Notes: generated by a model not told the origin, from the sequence alone. Counted from the first letter of the stretch, positions 846 through 17,975 are shown. The stretch: 27,674 bases of DNA from Lysobacterales bacterium (GCA_022844165.1 JALHMH010000032.1:1-27674), one strand, 5' to 3'. Translations and numbers: made by a program.

Positions 846-1217
846 TGGGCCGCTTTGAGCCCAGGCAACAATGAGAGCGCCGGCAAACGCAAATCCGGAC
901 GTACCCGACAAGGCAACCACGTCATCCGCTACATCCTGTGCGAATGCGCGAATGCTGCGCGCAGAACCAAGAGCACGTTAGCGGCCAAATATCGGAGCCT
1001 GATGGTACGCAAGTCGCACAAGAAAACCATCGTCGCCATTGCGCACAAAATGATCCGGCTGATCTATCTGCTGCTATCGCGTCGCACGCCTTACATCGAT
1101 CCGGCCATCGACTACGACGCCATGAGTGCGAAGAAAAACGCGCCGCGCTGGATCAAACAACTGCGGGCCATCGGCAAGTGGCCCGCAACGCGCGCACCGA
1201 CGACGCACGCTGCCTAG
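846..1217 (+). pseudogene. IS110-family transposase, C-terminal fragment only
   Basis: WAALSPGNNESAGKRKSGRTRQGN...AIAHKMIRLIYLLL matches the IS110 C-terminal (Transposase_20) region with the catalytic-Ser ESAG motif. The N-terminal DEDD domain is absent and recognisable homology begins at about 846. Confidence 0.85.
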
Positions 1218-1319
1218 CTTACCGCTGACGTTCGGGGTCGAGCCCAGCGGTGTACAACATGCTGCATCCGAATGCGGCAGGCTCCAACTCGTCTCCGATT
1301 CCGGGGGCTTTCACGGTAA
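846..1319 (+). mobile_element. Remnant IS110 element: 3' part of tnp plus ~100 bp right end
   Basis: The non-coding tail 1218-1316 has hairpins (accgctg...cagcggt; gctgcat..atgcggc) and ends ...tttcacgg directly against the TAAC of the attC core. The exact end is inferred. Confidence 0.6.
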
Positions 1320-1377
1320 CGTTTGAGCTCAGGCCGCGGCCCGTCAGGGCCGTCGCGCCTGCAGCGAAGTGTTAGCC
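1314..1377 (-). other. Integron attC site (cassette 1)
   Basis: Minus strand reads R'' GGCTAAC, 5 nt, L'' GCTGCAGG, central palindrome, L' CCTGAGC, 6 nt, R' GTTACCG. Spacing is canonical with an extra base in L''. The cassette gene's TAA stop lies inside R''. Confidence 0.92.
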
Positions 1378-2022
1378 GCCAACACTGATACGGGGATCAA
1401 TGATTCTTCTGAACTCACTGAGCACCGCCAGCCTTGCCGGCTCGTACTTCTCCTGGTACTCGGCCTCCAACTTTGTTCTGGCATCTTCGATTCTGGCCAA
1501 GTGATCTACCGGGTTCACAGGAGGGTTCTCGTAGATTGCCTGGTTGAATGCAATGGACATCAAGCTGGCAGACAGCCCGCACGTTGCAACCAGCGTGTAT
1601 GTTTCCTCGCTCAGATCGATAGCCGTGAGCACGGCTAGCTTTTCAAGATTCTCGGAGCGCGCCCTTAACTCATTACCCCAGATCCGATATGTCTCTATTG
1701 CTTCGGCAGGCAGCGTGTGGAGCTTGTTCGGGGCACGGACCTGAATAGCAGCCTCATTCCAAGAAATTAGCGCCCCATAGAGATGCTTAATTGCTGTTAC
1801 GCGCTGCGCGTCAATTCGGGTTACAGCAACATTGTGCTCGTGGATTCTCTTATCGAGGTCGCTCTTGAGGCGAGCAAACTCGGCTTGGTACTTCGCCTTC
1901 TCGCCTTCCAGTATTCGGTTTGCCCATACCTTGCCAAGCCACGAAGACATGCCGAAAACGATTGCAGCACCCCCGCCAAGAGAGACGAGGACTGCAAATG
2001 CAACGCTCCATATCTGTTCCAT
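1372..2022 (-). CDS. Cassette-encoded hypothetical protein, N-terminal TM helix plus helical/coiled-coil region (216 aa)
   Basis: ORF fills the cassette, has an AAGGA RBS just after the GTTAGCC core, a hydrophobic N-terminus, and a stop in R''. Confidence 0.85.
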   Translation of the reverse strand: MEQIWSVAFAVLVSLGGGAAIVFGMSSWLGKVWANRILEGEKAKYQAEFARLKSDLDKRIHEHNVAVTRIDAQRVTAIKHLYGALISWNEAAIQVRAPNKLHTLPAEAIETYRIWGNELRARSENLEKLAVLTAIDLSEETYTLVATCGLSASLMSIAFNQAIYENPPVNPVDHLARIEDARTKLEAEYQEKYEPARLAVLSEFRRIIDPRISVGG

Positions 2023-2041
2023 AGCACCACTTTTCCTTGGC

Positions 2042-2099
2042 GGCTAACGTGGGAATTCAGCGGCCGCCGAAGGCGGTCCGCTGGAATGAAAAGTTAGAC
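2042..2099 (-). other. Integron attC site (cassette 2)
   Basis: Minus strand reads GTCTAAC-ttttc-ATTCCAGC-ggaccgccttcggcggcc-GCTGAAT-tcccac-GTTAGCC, a canonical ~58 bp attC. Confidence 0.95.
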
Positions 2100-2407
2100 A
2101 GCGCATCCTGGTCATAGCCTAGTGAATAAGAACCCGAGAAACTAAAATTTCCCGACCAAAAATCCAAGGCCAAAGCCATGGCGCAAAAGACGAAGTACCC
2201 TGCCAGCGATTCCTTGGAGAACACGCCGGTCTGTTGGGCGACAAACAGGTTCCATGCGTGTATGACGATGACCCCAATTATCACAAGCAAAAGAGCCGCC
2301 GCAACTTCTAACAATTTAAAACCCGAACTGTGATAGCCGACCAATGGTGGCCACACAAACCCAACAAAAAATGTGAAAAAAACCGGTGGTTTCTTACTGT
2401 CGCTCAT
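2057..2407 (-). CDS. Cassette-encoded small membrane protein (~3 TM, 116 aa)
   Basis: ATG preceded by AAGGA, three hydrophobic segments, AT-richer than the flanks. The ORF reads through R'' and stops inside the attC. Confidence 0.7.
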   Translation of the reverse strand: MSDSKKPPVFFTFFVGFVWPPLVGYHSSGFKLLEVAAALLLVIIGVIVIHAWNLFVAQQTGVFSKESLAGYFVFCAMALALDFWSGNFSFSGSYSLGYDQDALSNFSFQRTAFGGR

Positions 2408-2483
2408 ATCCTTAAAGCCTCAATCTGTGTTGACTGCAGACTACCCTTGCAGCTCGTTTCTCCAAGCTGGTGGGTCTCAAGAC

Positions 2484-2505
2484 GCCTAACTAAAACTAGA
2501 CGACA
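2484..2505 (-). other. Cassette-array boundary: lone GTTAGGC core, possible attI or secondary site
   Basis: G|TTAGGC (2490-2484) is nearly complementary to cassette 2's R'' GTCTAAC. The upstream sequence GTCGTCTAGTTTTA has no matching attC arm. Confidence 0.5.
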
Positions 2506-2977
2506 CCAAGCCCACGCTGGGAGGTCGCCCATTTTGAAGAGACTGCGCTTACCCTTTCCATCGCCACTTCCCTCGTCAATAGTCAAACCTAAAATTTCCC
2601 GGATCAAGAGGGAACGGAGCCTCTGGATGAGAGCGCCGTGCAATCCATCGCGACGACGACAGTTTGCACTTTGAGACGGCGTGTGTCGATCTTGACGGAC
2701 ACTGAATGATCCGGTGTCACGACCGCCAGAGGCACGCCGTCGGAACGCGAAGCGCTACCTTGAGCGGCTGAGGTCCGTCGCTGGATGCTGATCGTTCGAG
2801 CACGAGACGACGGCGTTCGGCGGCGAGCCAGTTTGTTCAGCGTCATGTGATCAACCACCGTGCGCGAATGCGCCGCGTTCGGCGTCGAGCCAGATTGTTC
2901 GGCGCCGAAGACGGAGCAAACGATGGCGTCGTAGCAGCGACATCCGAACGGTTCGACGATGTGGACCATCCGCATCG

Positions 2978-3212
2978 CTAGTGTGGTGTCCCAAAAGTAA
3001 GGTGAACAATTTCCGCGCCTTTCGGCCCGAATGCTGCGTTGCTTTTAGCCCGTCGGCGCAGCCGCCGGGCGTTCGGTCGATCGCGCGGCATGCCGCGCAA
3101 GCTGATCGCCCTCACGGTCGCCATAGCGCTGCTATGACTCCTCCTCTCGTCTTGCCTCGGGCCGAAATCCATCGAAAATTTAGTTCACCTTACTTTTTGG
3201 ACACCACACTAG
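2978..3212. mobile_element. Non-autonomous MITE, ~235 bp, CTAG at both ends
   Basis: 26-bp terminal IRs (2982-3007 TGTGGTGTCCCAAAAGTAAGGTGAAC / 3183-3208) with one mismatch. CTAG at 2978-2981 and 3209-3212. Inner 11-bp IR at 3020-3030/3157-3167. Confidence 0.88.
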
Positions 3213-3373: not shown

Positions 3374-3496
3374 CCCGTCAACGCTTGACGTTACGCCTCA
3401 CGACGCAGCGCGCATGACTCGGGGACAACGTGGATCGCTACTCCTTTGTTGGCGCGGACTTTCACCCCTGGCACTCCGCCGGTTTCGCCGGCGCAG
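3374..3496 (-). mobile_element. Group II intron 5'-end (domain I) fragment, class E-like
   Basis: Minus strand cTGCGCCGGCGAAACCGGCGGAG..GGTGAAAGTCC..AAGGAGTAGCGATCCAC..CCCCGAGTCATGCG..GTGAGG..AAGCGTTGACGGG follows the recalled order of conserved domain I blocks. No RT ORF or domain V/VI seen. Confidence 0.72.
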
Positions 3497-3497
3497 C

Positions 3498-5405
3498 TCA
3501 CTCAAAGCCGTTGGCGAAGACCGTGTTTCGGCAGGAATGAAAACGGACGCCGTTGGCGCCCTCGGCGGCAATCAGCGCGCCGTTGGCGAGATCGATATCC
3601 AAGACGCTGTCTGGTGTCGCCAGGTTGCCGATTCGAACCGGGGCTGTTGGTGTGGCGATGCTGGCGATCACGGTGCCCCAGAATGGGCCGGCTGCGACGT
3701 ACAAACGTGTGCCATCGATCGCCAGACCACCGGCCAGGCCAGGGAAGATATCGAGCGTTCCTGCCGCGACGATGGCCGCTGGATTGGCGATGTTGAGCAC
3801 GCGCACTTCGGCATTGCCATCGGCCACATAGAGAAAGTTGCCTTGCTGCGCCAGGTCGCGAACCGGCTGTCCGGTGATGAACTGGCCGAGCAAGCTGGGT
3901 GTCGGCGTTGCCGCATCCAACACCTCAATGCGATCGCCCTTCCCCACGTAGAGTCGATTGCCAACCGGTAGCACCGCCAACGCGCCGACGCTGTCGTTCG
4001 ACAACAAGCTCGGCGCGCTGGGTGTCGCAATGTCGTATGTGCGCAGACCACCCGGCGTGGCGATGTACAGGCGATTGCCCTGCACCGCCAGTTGATGCGC
4101 TGCGGTCGGCAGCGCCAGACTCGCAAGTTGCGACACCGCAGCCGGATTGGCGACATTCAAGACGCGCAGCGTCGATTCGTCGTTGAGCGAGCTGACGGCA
4201 TAGGCGATGTTGCCGCTGCTGGTGACGGCGTAGATGTTGGCGGAATCGTAGCGCCCGAGTAACGCCCCGCGCGGCTCACTGCTGTTGTCGAAAATGGCCA
4301 GGCCACGCGGAAACTGCGGCACATAGACACGCCCGTCGGCAGCATGCACCCTTTCGGAGGCGCCGCCAACGAGCAGATTCGACTGCACCGTCGGCGCCGC
4401 TGGTGTGCCCAGCCCATAAGCGCGAATGCCATTGCTGGTCGCCAGACGCGTCGGAACAAAGGCCGTGTTACCGAGGCCCGCGACGCCATCGACACTCGCC
4501 TGGTCGGAGACCGTCGATACCAGCATCGGACTCGCTGGATTGGCAATGTTGAAAGTGCGCAGACCGCCTGCGCCCGCGGCCGTCACCAGGTGCCCGTTGA
4601 CCAGCGCGCCGTGCGAATAACTGCCAACAACGCCGATCGAGCCCAGCAAGGTGGGCGTAGGACTGCCGATATTCAAAATGCTGTAACCCTGGTCGCGCCG
4701 TGCCACGTAGGCGCGAAAACCGTCGAGCAACAGATGCGACGCACCCGTCGCCGGATAGCTGGCGACTTGCTGCATATTGCCCATGCCGAGCAGTTCCCAC
4801 ACGGTGACGCCCTCGGCGTCGTCCGCCACATAAAGGTAAGGCGCGGTTGGCGAGACCTTGACGTCGAACACAAAATCCGTGCCCGGCGTAACCACCTGCT
4901 GCAACAACACTGGTGCCGAAGGGTTAGCGATATTGATCGACGCGGGGCCTGCCGGGGTGATTGCGGCGTACAGCACGTTGCCGCTGATCGACAGCCCGCG
5001 GGGTATGCGGCCTTCCGGCACGGCATAACGGCTGAGCAAGGTGGGCTGCGTGCGATTGGCGATACTGACGATCGAGATCGTATTGCGTCGGTCGCTGACC
5101 GCCGCCAGCGCGCCGTCGGCGCGGATCGCAATGTGCGCAGCCGGGCCGGAGAGGCCGATCGCACCCAGGCGCACCGGCGCACTGGGATTGGCGATGTTGT
5201 AGAGCACAAGGTCAGCGCCTTCGCCCGAGAGCAGCAGCGACTGACCGCTGCCACTCCAGGTCTCCAGTGTGCGCACCGGCCCGTGGCCTTGGTGCACGAC
5301 CTCAAGTGGGCAGTTATCCAATGCCAGCAGTGGCGAGCTGGCGATCAGTGCGCTGATCAGGGTGATGAACTGCGAGCGCTGGCGGTAGCCGATTGAGCGT
5401 GGCAC
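3498..5405 (-). CDS. Secreted LVIVD-repeat beta-propeller protein with C-terminal TVFANGFE tail
   Basis: Many repeats of the type LYVAD..G(L/V)R(V/T)(L/F/Y)NIANPAAP. Likely GTG start at 5405 with a CAGGAG RBS, followed by a signal peptide (FITLISALIASSPLLA). Confidence 0.88.
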   Translation of the reverse strand: MPRSIGYRQRSQFITLISALIASSPLLALDNCPLEVVHQGHGPVRTLETWSGSGQSLLLSGEGADLVLYNIANPSAPVRLGAIGLSGPAAHIAIRADGALAAVSDRRNTISIVSIANRTQPTLLSRYAVPEGRIPRGLSISGNVLYAAITPAGPASINIANPSAPVLLQQVVTPGTDFVFDVKVSPTAPYLYVADDAEGVTVWELLGMGNMQQVASYPATGASHLLLDGFRAYVARRDQGYSILNIGSPTPTLLGSIGVVGSYSHGALVNGHLVTAAGAGGLRTFNIANPASPMLVSTVSDQASVDGVAGLGNTAFVPTRLATSNGIRAYGLGTPAAPTVQSNLLVGGASERVHAADGRVYVPQFPRGLAIFDNSSEPRGALLGRYDSANIYAVTSSGNIAYAVSSLNDESTLRVLNVANPAAVSQLASLALPTAAHQLAVQGNRLYIATPGGLRTYDIATPSAPSLLSNDSVGALAVLPVGNRLYVGKGDRIEVLDAATPTPSLLGQFITGQPVRDLAQQGNFLYVADGNAEVRVLNIANPAAIVAAGTLDIFPGLAGGLAIDGTRLYVAAGPFWGTVIASIATPTAPVRIGNLATPDSVLDIDLANGALIAAEGANGVRFHSCRNTVFANGFE

Positions 5406-5437
5406 GACGAACTCCTGATTGCGGGGATTAATCGCAA

Positions 5438-5497
5438 ATACGAAAAACGTGGCGGCGAACCCATCACGTGATGGGATGGGCCACCGTTTCTCCGTAT
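5438..5497. promoter_or_regulatory. Candidate bidirectional ECF-type promoter
   Basis: Perfect palindrome CCCATCACGTGATGGG at 5460-5475. GTGATGGG-N17-CGTAT occurs on both + (CGTAT 5493-5497) and - (CGTAT 5442-5438). Confidence 0.65.
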
Positions 5498-5529
5498 GTC
5501 CGGTGAGCACATCCGGAAAGGACAGTCCC

Positions 5530-8421
5530 ATGACCGGTTTCTTGTGGCGCCACGCACGCGCGCTCTTGGCCGCACTGTTGGCAGCAGGCCTGGCCTGCCC
5601 AGCCGCATCTCAGTCGGTCGACGATCAATTCGCGCCGGCTGCCAATGGCGTCGTTTCCGTGGTTCGCGTCGATAGCAAAGGGCGTTTGCTGATTGGCGGG
5701 CTGTTCACGCAGATCGACGGCCAAAGCGCGCTGCGGATTGCGCGGCTGCATGCCTCAGGACGCCGTGACGAAAGTTTCCTCGCCAGCACGAACGATGACG
5801 TCGACGCGATCTTGCCGATCGGCGATCGCGTCTTGATCTCGGGCCAGTTCACCAACGCCAGCGGGCTGTCGCGCTCCCGTCTGGCGCTGCTCGACGACAA
5901 CGGCAATGCGGTGACCGCGGTCGCGCCGCAAGCCGATGACGACGTGACTTCATTGGCGCAAGGACTCGTCGCCGATAGCTATTTTGTGGGTGGCAGGTTC
6001 ACCACGATCAATGGCCAGCCGCGTCGGCGCATTGCGCGTCTGGTGGGCGGCAATCTTAATCTCGATCCCACTTTCGTCCCGCCAGCCCTCAGCGGTTTTG
6101 TGGACACACTCGCCGTGCAGCGCGATGGCAAGTTATTGGTTGGCGGCAGCTCGCTGCGGGTCACTGGCAACGAGGCTCCGGTGCTGCGACTCAACGCGGA
6201 CGGCAGTTTGGACACCAGCTTCGCCTTCGAAGGTGCTGGAAACAACGACTCTGTGAACAGCATCGCTGTCCTGAGTAACGGCAAAATCCTGGTCGGCGGC
6301 TTCATGGCGCTTGGCCATGTAGCGCGCTTGCATCCAGACGGCAGTCGCGATACCAGTTTCGTCCCGCCCGCCTTAAACCAAAGCGTCAGAGAGATCGCCG
6401 TACAGCCAGACGGACGCGTGCTGGTGGTCGGTAACTTCAGCAGCGTGGCCTTACGTGACCGTGTGATTCGCCTCAACGAAGACGGCTCACTCGATGCCGG
6501 ATTTGCGTCGCTGCTGAGCCCCTTTGGCACGGTCACGACGGTGGCGGTGCAGGCCAACGGCGGCGTGGTCATTGGTGGAGCGTTTACCGATGTCACTGGC
6601 TTGCCGCGCCTGCGTCTGGCACGGATCAGCTATCGCGGCCAGCTGGATGATCGACTCAACGCCTCTTTCACTGGCGGGCCGGTTGAAGTGGTTGCGGCAC
6701 AGCCCGATGGCAAGCTCCTGGTCGGCGGCGGGTTCAGCCATGTCAACGGCCAACTGAGGCCGTATCTGGCGCGCATCAACGTCAGCGGCAGCCTCGACGC
6801 CTCGTTCGCTGCGGCACCGAACAACGATGTGCGCGCGATCGCCGTTCTCGGAGATCGCAGCGTACTCATTGCTGGTGCGTTCAATCAGGTCAACAGCAGC
6901 GCGAGGCTGCGTATCGCCAAACTCACGTCCAGCGGAGTGCTGGACCCGAACTTCCAGGTCGATGTCGGCAACGGCACGCTGCACACGCTGGCGCTGCAGG
7001 ACGACGGCCGCATTTTGATCGGCGGCGGCTTCACCAGCATCGACGGCTCGGCACGCCAGGGCATTGCGCGCTTGAATGCAGACAGCTCTTTAGACACCAG
7101 TTTCGTGCCATTGCCGCTATCGAATTTCACTCGCGTGCGCGCCATTTCCGTGCGTGCAGACGATGTTTTTCAAGCGCCAGCGGGAACGATTTATCTGGGC
7201 GGCGAAACCGATGGCACCAACCGACTGGAGCGCCTGACCGCAAACGGCGGCCTTGATGGCAGTTTTTTCAGGATCAACACCAGCACTGTTTTCTCCATCG
7301 TCAGCAGTGGCTTCGGCCAGGTCAATTACGGTGCTATATCGGGGGCGAACACCTGCGGTCGCTTTCTGAGCACGACCACCGGCACCGGACCCAATTGCCT
7401 CGCGAGCCCGGATCTGCCTGTGTTGTCGTTCGTGAGATCGGTGGGTTTTGACTACTTTGCCGGCGGCGCGTTCACCACTTTGAGCGGCATTGCCCATCCG
7501 GGCCTGGTCCAAATCGTCACTGCGGGGGCTCCCGCCCAACTGAGCGACGATTTCGACTTTCCCATCACCGGTGGCACGGCCACGGTGAACAGCCTGCAAT
7601 TGCAGGCCGATGGCAAGCTCATCGTTGCTGGAGACTTCACCGCAGTGGGCGGGCAGGCGCGTACCAGCATCGCGCGGATCAGCGAAACGATTGGAACGGA
7701 TAACAACCCTGCGCCGTTGCTGCGCACGTCCGGTGTGGGCATCCAATGGGACCGTCTGGCCGGTACCGTGCGCTTCGTGCCTGGTGCCCTGACACCGGAG
7801 TTAGAGCGCGCGCCGATTCTCTTGATCAGCGAGACGTGCTGCAGCGATACCATGTTTACGCCAACGGCCGGCGCCCGCGCGACTCGCATCAACTTGGCCA
7901 CAGGTGAGTGGCAGAAGTCCGGCTTCGCGCCATCGCTAGACAAGTTCTATCTACGCTGGCGTTACCAGGTGAGTGATGGAAGGGGCGGGCTGAGTTTGTA
8001 CGAAACCCCGATCCACCGCTTTGCGCCACGCAGCCCGCAGCTTCAGTTCAACCCGATTCCCAACGCTGCGTCTAACACCGTCGTCTTCCCATCGGGGCCC
8101 ACGGGCACGACATCGGCACAGATTACGGTCACTCCATCGGATGGCGACGGCGGAACCTCGGCGCTCAGTTGTTCCATACAAAACGTCGCCGGGCCCGGCA
8201 GCTTCTCCAATCTGCGCTCGAACCCGAGCGGCTTTGCGTGGCAAAACAACGCCGGAAGCGTGAGGCTCGATTGCACGCGTTCAGCGCAAGCGACGGTGGG
8301 AACATTGGTCTGTGTACAAAGCTTCAGCGACGAAAGTCTATCCGTCGAGCATCGCTGGGGCCTGACGTGCCCGGCTGCGAGTAGCATCGTCGATTCCATC
8401 TTTACTTCTGGCTTTGAGTGA
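5530..8421 (+). CDS. Secreted delta-60-repeat (DUF5122-like) beta-propeller protein with C-terminal DSIFTSGFE tail
   Basis: Repeated AVQPDGKLLVGGxF...RIARLNADGSLDTSF units. ATG at 5530 with a GGAAAGGA RBS and a signal peptide. A Cys-containing beta-rich domain precedes the tail. Confidence 0.92.
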   Translation: MTGFLWRHARALLAALLAAGLACPAASQSVDDQFAPAANGVVSVVRVDSKGRLLIGGLFTQIDGQSALRIARLHASGRRDESFLASTNDDVDAILPIGDRVLISGQFTNASGLSRSRLALLDDNGNAVTAVAPQADDDVTSLAQGLVADSYFVGGRFTTINGQPRRRIARLVGGNLNLDPTFVPPALSGFVDTLAVQRDGKLLVGGSSLRVTGNEAPVLRLNADGSLDTSFAFEGAGNNDSVNSIAVLSNGKILVGGFMALGHVARLHPDGSRDTSFVPPALNQSVREIAVQPDGRVLVVGNFSSVALRDRVIRLNEDGSLDAGFASLLSPFGTVTTVAVQANGGVVIGGAFTDVTGLPRLRLARISYRGQLDDRLNASFTGGPVEVVAAQPDGKLLVGGGFSHVNGQLRPYLARINVSGSLDASFAAAPNNDVRAIAVLGDRSVLIAGAFNQVNSSARLRIAKLTSSGVLDPNFQVDVGNGTLHTLALQDDGRILIGGGFTSIDGSARQGIARLNADSSLDTSFVPLPLSNFTRVRAISVRADDVFQAPAGTIYLGGETDGTNRLERLTANGGLDGSFFRINTSTVFSIVSSGFGQVNYGAISGANTCGRFLSTTTGTGPNCLASPDLPVLSFVRSVGFDYFAGGAFTTLSGIAHPGLVQIVTAGAPAQLSDDFDFPITGGTATVNSLQLQADGKLIVAGDFTAVGGQARTSIARISETIGTDNNPAPLLRTSGVGIQWDRLAGTVRFVPGALTPELERAPILLISETCCSDTMFTPTAGARATRINLATGEWQKSGFAPSLDKFYLRWRYQVSDGRGGLSLYETPIHRFAPRSPQLQFNPIPNAASNTVVFPSGPTGTTSAQITVTPSDGDGGTSALSCSIQNVAGPGSFSNLRSNPSGFAWQNNAGSVRLDCTRSAQATVGTLVCVQSFSDESLSVEHRWGLTCPAASSIVDSIFTSGFE

Positions 8422-9005
8422 GCATGACCGTAACGCCTGCGCCAGACGAGTCCAGAGTGCCGATTACGATGCTGCTGCAAGAGATCGCGCGCGGCGACAG
8501 CCCGTCGGACGAGCGCATCGTGGGCGTCGTGGTGCAGGCCTTGGAGCGTTTGGCGCAGAAAGAAATGGCACAGCGCGGCGGCTGGCATGGACTGACTTTG
8601 GAGCCCACGGTGTTTGCGCACGACGCACTGCTCAAGATCGTCGACCAGCGCCATGCTTTTGCCAATCGCGGCCATTTTTTTGCCTACGCCACACAAATCA
8701 TGGTGCGCGCCATGATCGATTATCACCGCGCCCGTCACGCGCAAAAGCGCGGCGGCGAGGCAGCCCGGGTCAGTTTGTCTGAAGCTTTGCCGCTCGACGA
8801 TGTGGATCTGGACCACATGCCGCCGGCACTGGAAGCGCTTCAGGTGCTCGATGCGCGCAAAGCCGATGTGGTGCGCTTGCGCGTTTTTTGGGGCGCCACA
8901 ACCGAGGAGATCGCTGAGATCCTGGGCCTGTCGACAGCCAGCGTAGAGCGCGACTGGCGCTTCGCGAAGCGTTGGTTGGCGGTGCAACTGCGGCCAGCGC
9001 CATGA
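8418..9005 (+). CDS. ECF sigma factor, kinase-associated type (TIGR02999/ECF43-like)
   Basis: TLEPTVFAHDALLKI, FANRGHFFAYATQIM, AQKRGG, EEIAEILGLSTASVERDWRFAKRWL. The GTG start overlaps the upstream stop (GTGA); alternative ATG at 8424. Confidence 0.92.
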   Translation: MSMTVTPAPDESRVPITMLLQEIARGDSPSDERIVGVVVQALERLAQKEMAQRGGWHGLTLEPTVFAHDALLKIVDQRHAFANRGHFFAYATQIMVRAMIDYHRARHAQKRGGEAARVSLSEALPLDDVDLDHMPPALEALQVLDARKADVVRLRVFWGATTEEIAEILGLSTASVERDWRFAKRWLAVQLRPAP

Positions 9006-11794
9006 CCGACAAAGAACGCCATCTGCGCCTCGATTCGCTGTTTCACCAGCTCGTCGACTTGCCGCGCGAAGAAAGCGCCGCGCGCATCGTGCAGCTGCAA
9101 CAAGACGATCCCGTTCTGGCCGCAGCGCTGGCCGCCATGCTGACCGGTTCGCATGCGGCGGGCGAGCGCGCGCTCGACGATTTGGCGCGGCATGCCAAGG
9201 TGCTGGCCTTGTCGCCCGGCATGCCCGAGCAGATTGGTCCGTATCGCGTGCTGCGGGTGCTCGGCGAGGGTGGCATGGGCCGCGTTTACGAGGCCGAACA
9301 AACCTCGCCCGTGCAACGCCGCGTTGCGGTGAAGTTGACGCATGCGGGACTCGATAACGCTCGGGTGGTTGCGCGCTTTCACGGCGAACGCCAGGCGCTG
9401 GCGGTGCTCGATCACCCGAACATCGCGCGGATTTTTGAGGCCGGATCGCACAGCGATGGGCGGCCCTGGTTTGCCATGGAATTGATCGACGGAATCACGA
9501 TCACGCAGTGGGCGAAGGACCGCGATCTAGGCTTACGCGCACGGCTCGAACTATTGCTTCCCGTGTGCGATGCGATTGGCCACGCGCACCGCAAGGGTGT
9601 CATCCACCGCGACTTGAAGCCGAGCAACGTCCTGATCAGCGAGATCGACGGCAAGGCCGTTCCGAAGATCATCGACTTTGGCATCGCCAAAGCGCTGCAT
9701 GGCGACGCCCTCGATGCCACGCACGCCGGAGAACTGATCGGCACCCCCGAATACATGAGCCCGGAACAGGCCAGCTTAGGCGCGATCGATATCGACACGC
9801 GTTCGGATGTGTATGCGCTGGGGTTGTTGTTGTTCGAACTTCTGGTCGGTCAATTGCCGCTGACGCTGGCCGACTTGCGGCGGTTCGCGTTCGACGAAAT
9901 GTGCCGCCGCGTGCGCGAAGAAGAGCCGCCACGACCTAGCGCCGTGCTTAGCGCCAGTCGCCGCAGCGTGGGATCGATGTCCAGTGCCGAATGGGCACGC
10001 CGCGTACAAGGCGATCTGGACGCTGTCGTACTCAAGGCTCTGGCCAAAGATCGCGAACAACGCTACGACAGCGTTGCCGGATTGGCCGAGGATTTGCGGC
10101 GCTACTTGAGCGATCAGCCGGTGTACGCCACGCCGCCGAACTGGCGCTATCGCTTGCGCAAATTCGTCAGGCGCCACCGCGCTGCCAGCATCGCTGCCGC
10201 GGCGATTGCGCTGGCAGCGGTGATCACCTTGGCGATGGCAGTGCGCAGTTATTTCGCCGTACGCGAGGCGATGGCGCAAGCCACGCAAGCACAGCAGCAA
10301 TCCGAGGCCAGCAATCGATTTTTGCTGAGCCTGTTCCGTGCGGCCGACCCACGTGCCGAACCTGGTGCTGATCCAACGGCCCGTGACTTGTTGGCACGTG
10401 GCTTCGATCAGCTCAAGGCCGACACTGAACTATCGCCGGAAACCCGGCTGCGCATGCTGGAGCGTCTGGCTGAAGCCGCCTATGCACTTGGCGACTACGC
10501 GCAGGCGCAGCGCTCGTTCGAAGAGGCTCTTGCACTACACGAAGACCTGGCGACCACAGATGCCTTTCGCCGCGCCAGCGTTTTCGATCGCCTGGGCGTC
10601 ATCGCGCGCGATCGTGGCGATATGCCCGGCGCCATCGCGCGCCATCGCGAGGCCTTGGCGCTGATGCAGCGCGCCGGGTTGACCGACAGCCCAGACAGCT
10701 CACGACTGCACAGCAACCTCGGGATCGCCCTGCGGCTCAGCGGCGATCTGAGGGGTGCGTCTGCGCAGTACGACATCGCCATTGCCCTGCTCAGCGGCGA
10801 GCCCCAACCGAGCCAGAAGCTCGCCAGCGCCTTGCTCAATCGCGCAGCAGTGCTGCAGGACCAGGGAAATCTGGACGCGTCGATAGCCACATTGAATGAG
10901 GCAATGGTGCAGTTCCAGAGCCTGTTGCCACCCGAACATCCCAATTTTGCGGTGCTCTACAACAACATGAGCATGGTGCAGCGCAATGCCGGCAACTTGC
11001 ACGAGGCGCTCGCGCTGATTGAACAGTCGCGCGCCAACGAAGCGCTGAATCTGCCGGAGTCGCACCCCGACCGCGCTGACAGTTTGCACAACAAAGCCGC
11101 TGTCTTGATCCGATTGGGTCAGATCGAGGCCGCAAGGGAGAGTCTCAATGCGGCGCTGGCGCTGCTGGCGCAAACCCTGCCGCCAGACAATCCGCGCACC
11201 GCTGTGCATCGCGACTCGCTCGCGGAAATCGATCTGTTGGGCGGCAACTACGCCGCAGCCAGCAGCCGCTTACGAGCGCTCATCGACGAGTTGGAAGACA
11301 CACCGGCAACTTTGCGGCAACGCATCGTTTCGCTGCGCAAACTGGCCATGGCCGAGCGCGGCGCCAACCGTTGGCACGAGGCGACCACGGCCGCGCAACA
11401 AGCGATCGATCTGGCAATCCGCAACGAACTTCCTGCTGAGCAGGCGCTTGCTTTGTTGCTGCAAGCGCTGATCGAACTTGATCGGCAACAGCCCGACCGC
11501 GCTGCGGAGCGTTTCAACGCCGCGTTGAACCTGCTGCCCGAATGCGCTCGCGGCCCTTGCACACTCGACCAGGGCAGCTCGCATCTGCTCCGGGCGCAAT
11601 ACCTCGCGCGCAGCGGCGCAACAGCGGCTGCTCTGACCACGCTGCAATACGCTATCGAGCACCGCCGTTGGTCGGCATCGATACTGTCTCACCCAGACCT
11701 CAATTCCCTGCGCGCGCATCCGCGGTGGTCCGAGTTGGAAAGCGCGCTGAAAGGGCGGACGGCGCCTGAAAGCAAAACCGACGAACGTTCATGA
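9002..11794 (+). CDS. Hanks-type Ser/Thr protein kinase with TM helix and C-terminal TPR repeats
   Basis: GEGGMG, VAVK, HRDLKPSN, DFG and GTPEYMSPE motifs; TM segment ASIAAAAIALAAVITLAMAV; TPR-like repeats. ATG at 9002 overlaps the sigma-factor stop (ATGA). Confidence 0.95.
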   Translation: MTDKERHLRLDSLFHQLVDLPREESAARIVQLQQDDPVLAAALAAMLTGSHAAGERALDDLARHAKVLALSPGMPEQIGPYRVLRVLGEGGMGRVYEAEQTSPVQRRVAVKLTHAGLDNARVVARFHGERQALAVLDHPNIARIFEAGSHSDGRPWFAMELIDGITITQWAKDRDLGLRARLELLLPVCDAIGHAHRKGVIHRDLKPSNVLISEIDGKAVPKIIDFGIAKALHGDALDATHAGELIGTPEYMSPEQASLGAIDIDTRSDVYALGLLLFELLVGQLPLTLADLRRFAFDEMCRRVREEEPPRPSAVLSASRRSVGSMSSAEWARRVQGDLDAVVLKALAKDREQRYDSVAGLAEDLRRYLSDQPVYATPPNWRYRLRKFVRRHRAASIAAAAIALAAVITLAMAVRSYFAVREAMAQATQAQQQSEASNRFLLSLFRAADPRAEPGADPTARDLLARGFDQLKADTELSPETRLRMLERLAEAAYALGDYAQAQRSFEEALALHEDLATTDAFRRASVFDRLGVIARDRGDMPGAIARHREALALMQRAGLTDSPDSSRLHSNLGIALRLSGDLRGASAQYDIAIALLSGEPQPSQKLASALLNRAAVLQDQGNLDASIATLNEAMVQFQSLLPPEHPNFAVLYNNMSMVQRNAGNLHEALALIEQSRANEALNLPESHPDRADSLHNKAAVLIRLGQIEAARESLNAALALLAQTLPPDNPRTAVHRDSLAEIDLLGGNYAAASSRLRALIDELEDTPATLRQRIVSLRKLAMAERGANRWHEATTAAQQAIDLAIRNELPAEQALALLLQALIELDRQQPDRAAERFNAALNLLPECARGPCTLDQGSSHLLRAQYLARSGATAAALTTLQYAIEHRRWSASILSHPDLNSLRAHPRWSELESALKGRTAPESKTDERS

Positions 11795-17280: not shown

Positions 17281-17323
17281 AGTCTGACGGATACGCCCGG
17301 GCCTGTCGGTGACTTGCGTTACA
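17281..17323 (-). promoter_or_regulatory. CRP/FNR-type box with class II promoter geometry upstream of the DUF2892 gene
   Basis: Minus strand TGTAA-N6-TCACC at 17323-17308. A -10-like CAGACT at 17286-17281 starts 29.5 bp from the box centre, equivalent to a -41.5 position. Confidence 0.6.
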
Positions 17324-17975
17324 CAGCCCTCGTGGCCAATCGGGTCAGATCGAGCAGGCGAATTGACTCGCGCCCCAATTCGATGAGCTGTTCGTCGGCG
17401 AATTGGTTTAACAGGCGGGTAATCATTTCGCGCACGGTGCCGAGATCATCGGCGAGCGCCTGATGGGTTGTGTGCAGATGCGGGCCGCGCTCCAGGAGCA
17501 GGCGCGCCAGACGTTGATCGAGGCGTTGAAACGCCACCTCCTCAACCAGCATCATGAGCTCGGCCATGCGTTCGGCGAAGAGTGCGAACACGTAGCGGCG
17601 AAACGGCGAATGTTCGGCGACGAGCTGCTCAAACAATGCGCTGTCGACAGGCAGCAGACGTACATCGGTAAAGGCGATTCCGCGGGCGTTGTAATGCCGC
17701 CGACCGAGCAGGCAGCCCTGCGTGATGATGCACGATTCGCCCGGCAGCACACGATAAAGATGCAGCAAGCGACCGTGCCTTGCCATTTTGCTGACACGCA
17801 CTTCGCCGGCCAAAACCAGTGGAAACGCTGCGCATGCGGCGCCATCCTCGAAAAGCACAGTTCCCGCTGCGAAATCCAGCGGCTTGAGTGTCAGGAGCCT
17901 GGCGGCGAGTCCGTCCGGCAGATCGCGAAGCGCCGGATAAAGTCGCCGGGCGTGGTCGAGCGCATGCATGCTCAT
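17319..17975 (-). CDS. Crp/Fnr family transcriptional regulator
   Basis: cNMP-binding-like domain (LYRVLPGESCI) and HTH (THQALADDLGTVREMITRLL). Confidence 0.93.
   Translation of the reverse strand: MSMHALDHARRLYPALRDLPDGLAARLLTLKPLDFAAGTVLFEDGAACAAFPLVLAGEVRVSKMARHGRLLHLYRVLPGESCIITQGCLLGRRHYNARGIAFTDVRLLPVDSALFEQLVAEHSPFRRYVFALFAERMAELMMLVEEVAFQRLDQRLARLLLERGPHLHTTHQALADDLGTVREMITRLLNQFADEQLIELGRESIRLLDLTRLATRAV

Follow-up and report, generated by a model that had tools for sequence, protein, structure and literature searches.

Two abutting ECF-type promoters probably account for a palindrome between propeller genes in a Lysobacterales bacterium

The short region between two divergent propeller genes of a Lysobacterales bacterium most probably contains two ECF-type promoters that are read by a local ECF43-like sigma factor. 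Judging from the DNA sequence, one promoter would serve a LVIVD-repeat gene and the other an operon for a DUF5122 protein, the sigma factor itself and a kinase, so that the sigma factor would be positively autoregulated. We identified this arrangement in a stretch of 27,674 nt (GCA_022844165.1 JALHMH010000032.1:1-27674; hereafter the window), which lies within contig C32 of the genome labeled G000. In the proposed mechanism, the -35 elements of the back-to-back promoters abut and would thereby create a palindrome, and the sigma factor encoded 2.9 kb downstream (8418-9005) would read both promoters. Transcription of the LVIVD propeller gene would start from the leftward promoter, and that of the operon for the DUF5122 propeller, the sigma factor and a membrane Ser/Thr kinase from the rightward one. 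Once activated by the kinase, the sigma factor would amplify its own production together with that of two secreted propeller proteins. RNA polymerase carrying this sigma factor is predicted to bind here and to start transcription near 5503 (+) and 5432 (-), about 70 bp apart; these positions assume the spacing that usually separates an ECF -10 element from the start site. Activation of the sigma factor would occur by phosphorylation, by analogy with the EcfP/PknT and EcfK/PknS pairs.

The initial annotation described a perfect 16-bp palindrome, flanked in both directions by 17 nt and then CGTAT, with each CGTAT ending 32 nt before a start codon. We confirmed the palindrome CCCATCACGTGATGGG at 5460-5475, as well as both 17-nt intervals and both distances to the start codons (ATG at 5530 on the + strand and GTG at 5405 on the - strand). 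The elements of the two promoters are as follows.

5438-5442, - strand: -10 element CGTAT of the leftward promoter (ATACG on the + strand), invariant in 12 of 12 aligned sites
5443-5459, - strand: 17-nt spacer of the leftward promoter (TTCGCCGCCACGTTTTT on the - strand), with the first two bases, TT, as an extension of the -35 element
5460-5466, - strand: -35 heptamer TGATGGG of the leftward promoter
5460-5475, no strand: perfect 16-bp palindrome, consisting of the two back-to-back -35 heptamers with 2 bp (CG) between them
5469-5475, + strand: -35 heptamer TGATGGG of the rightward promoter
5476-5492, + strand: 17-nt spacer of the rightward promoter, ATGGGCCACCGTTTCTC
5493-5497, + strand: -10 element CGTAT of the rightward promoter, ending 32 nt before the ATG at 5530

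The layout of the 124-nt intergenic region (5406-5529) is symmetric around a dyad between 5467 and 5468, which is 62 nt from each of the two start codons, and the two -10 elements are 50 bp apart. Shine-Dalgarno-like sequences are found upstream of the ATG at 5530 (AAGGA) and of the GTG at 5405 (AGGAG). The palindrome had been called a shared -35 region, and two -35 heptamers do abut in it, but the palindrome itself is not conserved in orthologous loci. Each -35 element extends 2 nt beyond the palindrome, reading TGAnGGG followed by T/A and then T (T in 9 of 12 aligned sites at the first of these bases and in 11 of 12 at the second). Both spacers contain the GCCAC and the T-rich end that had been pointed out, with GCCAC offset by 2 nt between the two arms. 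However, GCCAC is not conserved in related sites, where the only recurring spacer feature is an A/T-rich stretch before CGTAT. We also observed a 5-bp inverted repeat with a 9-nt loop immediately after each CGTAT (TTGCG...CGCAA at 5419-5437 on the - strand and TCCGG...CCGGA at 5499-5517 on the + strand). These repeats, which may be fortuitous, would straddle the predicted start sites and were not seen in the orthologous leaders. Independent contigs from two public DNA runs, X1 (spanning 5158-5825) and X2 (spanning 5304-5692), showed 0 differences from the window, although one of these runs might itself be the source sample. Four DNA runs yielded no diverged version of the palindrome; positions 5433-5514 were covered in X1 and X2 and uncovered in X5 and X6.

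The four genes of the module are listed below.

3498-5405, - strand: gene for a 635-aa LVIVD-repeat protein (Pfam PF08309, E 4.9e-23)
5530-8421, + strand: gene for a 963-aa DUF5122 / delta-60-repeat beta-propeller protein (PF17164, E 1.4e-92; TIGR02608, E 3e-62)
8418-9005, + strand: gene for a 195-aa ECF sigma factor of the kinase-linked Sigma70_ECF / TIGR02999 type (PF07638, E 7.1e-37, residues 16-192)
9002-11794, + strand: gene for a Hanks-type Ser/Thr kinase (Pfam Pkinase and TPR families)

Both propeller proteins have a signal-peptide-like N-terminus and end in F-x-(N/S)-GFE, the LVIVD protein in FANGFE and the DUF5122 protein, encoded by the first gene of the rightward operon, in FTSGFE. 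There is a 4-nt overlap between the end of the DUF5122 gene and the start of the sigma gene. The kinase likely starts at ATG 9002, again with a 4-nt overlap with the sigma stop; its longest ORF starts at TTG 8972, and alignments with orthologues begin at residues 8-11. Since the genes for the DUF5122 protein, the sigma factor and the kinase overlap by 4 nt at both junctions, they form one operon. In the 940-aa kinase ORF, the Pkinase domain covers residues 91-364, hydropathy places a single transmembrane helix at ~403-425, and TPR families match from about residue 490. The best solved relative, matching the cytoplasmic part of the kinase, is PDB 9EED (E 2.1e-58), which the text available from PMC13147305 gives as PknS(1-364) of Xanthomonas citri. 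After the LVIVD and kinase genes, scans for terminators yielded no signal stronger than in shuffled sequences.

The left flank of the module contains a fragment of an IS110-family transposase (PF02371) at 855-1217 and a dip in G+C content at 1000-3000 (0.54-0.57 vs about 0.62), and a genome of the same genus (G001) lacks both the LVIVD gene and this sigma factor at the thresholds applied; the module may have been acquired horizontally. The last 121 LVIVD codons and the sequence downstream of them are duplicated at 96-97% identity on another contig (C53:24788-25338), apparently as a fragment, which matches positions 3377-3855 and 2797-2867 of the window. A dispersed repeat family seems to be represented by two other 16-bp palindromes, GCGCGGCATGCCGCGC and TCGCGGCATGCCGCGA, with dozens of occurrences in the genome, many of them close to contig ends; one copy of this type is located at 3083-3098, about 400 nt downstream of the LVIVD gene.

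To compare the promoter region across relatives, we drew sigma relatives from a species-representative genome collection, metagenome contigs and 299 genomes of the same order; the orthologous loci are largely metagenome-assembled sequences. Loci with 64-67% identical sigma factors fell into five non-redundant groups (L014=L016=L028=L034; L013, L024 and L025; L015=L035 with L027; L026 and L030; and L029). TGAnGGG-N16/17-CGTAT was found directly upstream of the sigma gene, which comes first in its unit there, in all five groups; in the window, the motif instead precedes the DUF5122-sigma-kinase operon. A second, divergent copy precedes the LVIVD gene in four of the five groups, and the LVIVD orthologues behind this motif are 55-56% identical. 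L014 has a third copy, located before a short DUF5122 gene.

We aligned 12 sites from six non-redundant loci (the window, L014, L024, L026, L027 and L029), about nine of which are independent, since three site pairs are orthologous near-duplicates. Their consensus is cATGAnGGGTTt, a gap of 16 nt (4 of 12 sites) or 17 nt (8 of 12) that includes an A/T-rich stretch, and then CGTAT(G/A). CGTAT was invariant, and the G, GG and G of the -35 block were present in 12, 12, 12 and 11 of the 12 sites. The final counts rest on plain patterns, as a first position-weight matrix built from 10 sites had too many flanking columns. All 12 sites thus consist of two blocks at 16-17 nt with CGT in the downstream block, and all 12 face the start of a gene, at a distance of 32-108 nt. 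LVIVD and DUF5122 genes begin 32-38 nt after the motif and four sigma genes 50-51 nt after it; for the fifth sigma gene the value is 39 or 108 nt. The motif stands before the sigma factor's own unit in each of the six loci and is co-inherited with the sigma factor. Such a spacing and a CGT-containing -10 element fit ECF promoters, for example CGTC for ECF42 in an excerpt of the PMC7826278 supplement, and ECF sigma factors usually autoregulate, which allows promoter prediction, according to passages of PMC7826278. The parts of the cognate-promoter proposal that sequence can address are therefore borne out: a directional unit of fixed spacing precedes orthologous sigma, LVIVD or DUF5122 genes.

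The closest sigma locus, L023 (70% identity), showed no motif in the 888 nt available upstream. It resembles the window in that the sigma gene follows another gene, and the contig ends there. On inspection by eye of L023 positions 620-640, the gene upstream of the sigma gene ends in PIFAN followed by an out-of-frame FE-stop, a GFE-like tail with a 1-nt gap; if this tail is real, the order of GFE-tailed gene, sigma gene and kinase gene looks common to L023 and the window. In another locus, L013 (G018:C229, positions 1-1300), both promoters are kept, but the leftward one leads into residues 610-932 of the kinase, its C-terminal third, with the sigma gene and the first 600 kinase residues missing. 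The near-identical promoter regions of L024 and L025 do have these parts, and the loss in L013 is either a deletion or a misassembly.

The spacing between the divergent -35 heptamers differs widely between loci, at 2 bp in the window and, in L014, L029, L026 and L024, at 35, 52, 53 and 78 bp, respectively. This variation from 2 to 78 bp indicates that the half-units are independent and that the palindrome is the tightest case of two directional promoters; the half-unit is conserved, and the palindrome is not. These data bear on whether the palindrome is instead the operator of an unrelated dimeric regulator acting on both genes, with CGTAT being incidental or serving another sigma factor. A perfect dyad centered between two start codons has the look of a classic operator, and a gene for a CRP-family regulator is present 12 kb away (17319-17975). 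However, the four orthologous loci with separated half-sites have no palindrome, and each of their half-units is tied at 16-17 nt to its own CGTAT, in opposite orientations. Moreover, the 16-mer occurs nowhere else in the genome at up to 2 mismatches, so no regulon is visible, and the sigma factor and the kinase are the only regulator genes conserved in the module. The CRP-type consensus is TGTGA-N6-TCACA, while the half-sites here are TCAC then GTGA with no gap, the reverse of the CRP-type order. We therefore regard an operator as highly improbable, although a regulator could conceivably bind the palindrome in addition in this one genome.

We determined how unusual the palindrome is within the 4.68-Mb genome. 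The exact 16-mer is unique, also when up to 2 mismatches are allowed; at 3 mismatches there are 14 other matches, whose flanks are unrelated. Its single copy at up to 2 mismatches rules out a dispersed repeat or MITE. Perfect 16-bp palindromes as a class number 257 in the genome, about 2.5 times the approximately 101 expected from composition, and three of them lie in the window's part of contig C32. With 257 such sequences, the palindrome alone is not remarkable, and its significance is carried by the flanks and their conservation elsewhere. This excess would also be compatible with a chance palindrome or with a by-product of an old inverted duplication that is non-regulatory, the true promoters being elsewhere, and small shifts indeed bring the GCCAC and GTTT of the two spacers into alignment. 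Yet the two-block unit is conserved where the flanking sequence has diverged, the 124-nt intergenic region has no room for other promoters, and a scan of 5300-5650 for sigma-70-like promoters found 0. Such a non-regulatory origin is thus barely credible, and a pair of ECF-type promoters remains the preferred explanation of the symmetry.

Next, we assessed the specificity of the motif. The strict pattern TGA.GGG-N16/17-CGTAT has three matches on both strands of the whole 4.68-Mb genome: the two promoters described here and one inside a 612-aa ORF on contig C1, with no intergenic match elsewhere. In 53,392 bp from six related loci (L014, L024, L026, L027, L029 and L023, counted separately from the window), there were seven strict matches, all in these promoter regions and 0 in L023. 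Seventeen more distant loci (118,499 bp) contained two strict matches, each located shortly after a sigma gene of 53-57% identity and ahead of a gene for a secreted protein of ~400 aa with weak Reg_prop propeller matches. The order in these loci, L038:1201 (G063:C219) and L040:2207 / L046 (G035:C23), is sigma gene, motif and secreted propeller-like gene, followed in L046 by a TPR kinase gene. Going by this gene order, the sigma factor would there drive the propeller protein and the kinase, and not itself. The motif was absent from the stretch fetched in 10 of the 12 scored loci with 52-63% identical sigma factors (L017-L021, L036, L037, L039 and L041-L044). Several loci in this identity range instead show a sigma-70-like TTGACG-N17-GATACT upstream of the sigma gene.

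A looser pattern, GNNGGG-N16/17-CGTATR, occurred at control frequency in four genomes. Five candidates for additional regulon members (C1:20127, C5:49604, C26:24533, G018:C137 and G018:C166) all lie within long ORFs and were rejected as chance matches; the extra loose matches in genome G018 are intragenic. We also searched the 450 nt preceding each of the 24 sigma genes for a general motif of kinase-linked sigma factors, taking in 22-23 nt upstream of each CGTA(T/A/C), and rejected this idea because no shared -35 block was present near these matches.

GFE is by far the commonest C-terminal tripeptide in the genome, ending 63 of 6283 stop-to-stop ORFs of at least 200 aa, with the next one at 22. 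The initial annotation suggested scanning upstream of other ECF/STK-linked GFE-tail genes. Over all GFE-tailed ORFs, GGG-N16-18-CGTAT was located near 3 of the 63 GFE-tailed ORFs, vs 39 of the 6220 others. Since two of these three are the genes described here, the motif is not a regulon-wide signal of GFE-tailed genes. Several GFE-tailed genes adjoin sigma/kinase pairs.

The genome contains 31 matches to PF07638, of which 24 are strong (E <= 6e-27), and examples of such sigma genes are found at the following positions.

C4:156463-157005: PF07638 sigma gene
C2:213306-213845: PF07638 sigma gene
C9:47231-47773: PF07638 sigma gene

When coordinates were compared by eye with those of kinase matches from tblastn, at least 19 of the 24 strong sigma genes had a Hanks kinase match within about 1 kb. 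Sigma/kinase pairs are thus very largely expanded in this genome. With 24 strong paralogues, proximity alone is no proof of which sigma factor reads the motif, and the promoter pair could be real but be read by one or several of the 23 other kinase-linked sigma factors, and not by the adjacent one alone. Related sequences were observed in two places, TGGCGGGAT-N-CGTAT at C47:29374 (+) and GCGGGTT-N-CGTA at C45:5519 (+), each after an A-rich run and ~80-120 nt before a GFE-tailed gene that neighbors other sigma/kinase genes. They may be promoters of paralogous sigma factors with related specificity, which suggests partly overlapping specificities. On the other hand, the paralogues are only 24-40% identical to the window sigma factor, and the motif travels with the orthologous sigma factor (64-67%) across genomes and metagenome contigs. 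In addition, a genome of the same genus (G001) has neither this sigma factor (E <= 1e-45) nor the LVIVD gene. We consider it quite improbable that paralogues read these promoters, and the adjacent sigma factor is the likely reader.

The sigma factor resembles ECF43 members, such as EcfK (with PknS) of Xanthomonas citri and EcfP (with PknT) of Vibrio parahaemolyticus, in being of the PF07638 / TIGR02999 type; it scored 148.3 bits against TIGR02999, for which the cut-off is 126.15. As stated for ECF43 in the relevant entry of the PMC7826278 supplement, it matches Pfam Sigma70_ECF and not separate sigma2 and sigma4 models. The same entry gives as ECF43 context a protein kinase gene at +1, whose product has extracytoplasmic TPR repeats and a single transmembrane helix, and this is also what we found here. 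The taxonomic origin agrees as well: the sigma relatives come from Lysobacterales, Xanthomonas or Aquimonas, and Xanthomonadales supply 343 of the 1032 ECF43 sequences analyzed, as given in a section of PMC13147305. In contrast, the promoter predicted for the ECF43 group in the supplement excerpt of PMC7826278 has GTC in the -35 and CAG in the -10 element, where the window has TGAnGGGTT and CGTAT. That prediction rests on 69 non-redundant proteins, in the excerpt's own figures, and may not cover this subclade. The targets also differ, with T6SS or polymyxin-resistance genes named for EcfK/EcfP in the portions of PMC8999054 and PMC7777525 at hand, and two secreted propeller proteins as the predicted targets here.

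The promoters resemble classical autoregulated ECF promoters, such as that of Bacillus subtilis SigW (TGAAAC-N16-CGTA), in having a two-block structure with a 16-17-nt gap, a -10 element that contains CGT, a short leader and the sigma factor's own operon as a target. Unlike in classical ECF promoters, the -35 element lacks the usual AAC and is G-rich (GGGTT). The locus furthermore has no anti-sigma gene and carries a kinase gene instead. A parallel exists with Pseudomonas syringae hrpL (PMC5263251), where an ECF-dependent promoter is divergent beside the sigma factor's own gene and its occupancy can influence the neighboring promoter, or the reverse. There, however, hrpL is sigma-54 dependent and the effect is negative autoregulation. 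In contrast to the P. syringae hrp-box, the window has a common ECF-type motif in both promoters, with abutting -35 elements. The bidirectional promoters that Warman et al. reportedly described in 2021 arise from symmetric -10 elements, with a shared -10 and start sites said to be about 18 bp apart. In both cases, the symmetry of the DNA would yield divergent transcription from one compact site. Here, in contrast, it is the -35 regions that abut, and the -10 elements and the predicted starts are 50 bp and ~70 bp apart, respectively. An autoregulated ECF promoter is a known kind of element, and the architecture in the window is unusually compact.

We then inspected the positions at which such sigma factors are phosphorylated. 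A threonine in region sigma2.2 is phosphorylated in EcfP and EcfK, as described in excerpts of PMC8999054 and PMC13147305; in ECF43, S/T residues stand in place of the DAED motif of sigma2.2, and a conserved threonine there is phosphorylated. The position that appears to correspond in the window sigma factor is T64, within E-P-T-V in the segment of residues 60-66, matched to DAED by eye through its LV/F-x-(H/N)-(D/E)-A context in an alignment of relatives other than EcfP and EcfK. Its counterpart in orthologues is R (L014, L015, L026, L029 and others), S (L024), Q (L023) or A (L020), and nearly all paralogues of the genome that aligned at this position keep T. The linker motif KRGG-x3-R-(V/I)-(S/T)-x-(S/T), which includes S119 and S121 of the window sigma factor (residues 110-122), is conserved in nearly all relatives, with a single G exception at the first serine across 25 of them. 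EcfK has linker phosphosites at T104-S110, of which T106 is critical, in the results available from PMC13147305. S119 and S121 are possibly the counterpart of these sites, a match based on the linker motif and not on an alignment with EcfK. Both the variability of the sigma2.2 threonine and the conservation of the linker serines are relevant to the current debate over which phosphosite matters, as presented in that portion of PMC13147305.

The -35 centers are 9 bp apart, which would place two sigma4 domains on almost one face of the helix, in the manner of a dimeric repressor's two halves. Two holoenzymes on the abutting -35 elements might therefore touch or exclude each other, and the palindrome could serve as a coupling device at the level of the sigma factor. 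Such coupling would fix a ratio, or an alternation, between LVIVD output and self-amplification (propeller, sigma factor and kinase), and, if it is true, relatives with 35-78 bp between the promoters would be without it. A second strand of this idea starts from the lack of the canonical sigma2.2 phospho-threonine in most orthologues: the clade may be switched only through the conserved linker serines. Taken jointly, the two strands are unlikely to hold.

To our knowledge, only two members of the kinase-activated ECF sigma factors have been studied. In the literature searched, which did not include Iyer et al. 2020 (Nat Microbiol), a study that may define EcfP-dependent promoters, we did not find the subgroup-specific motif described here. 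Kinase-activated ECF sigma factors are abundant in Xanthomonadales, and the sole promoter prediction in this literature is a coarse one at group level, which the sites here do not match. In conclusion, the locus provides a sharply defined, conserved promoter (12 sites) with what would be a small and closed regulon of two secreted propellers, a sigma factor and a kinase. It would therefore be a compact system for learning how phosphorylation turns such a sigma factor on, and the natural series of 2-78 bp spacings would lend itself to asking whether ECF promoters placed back to back hinder or assist one another.
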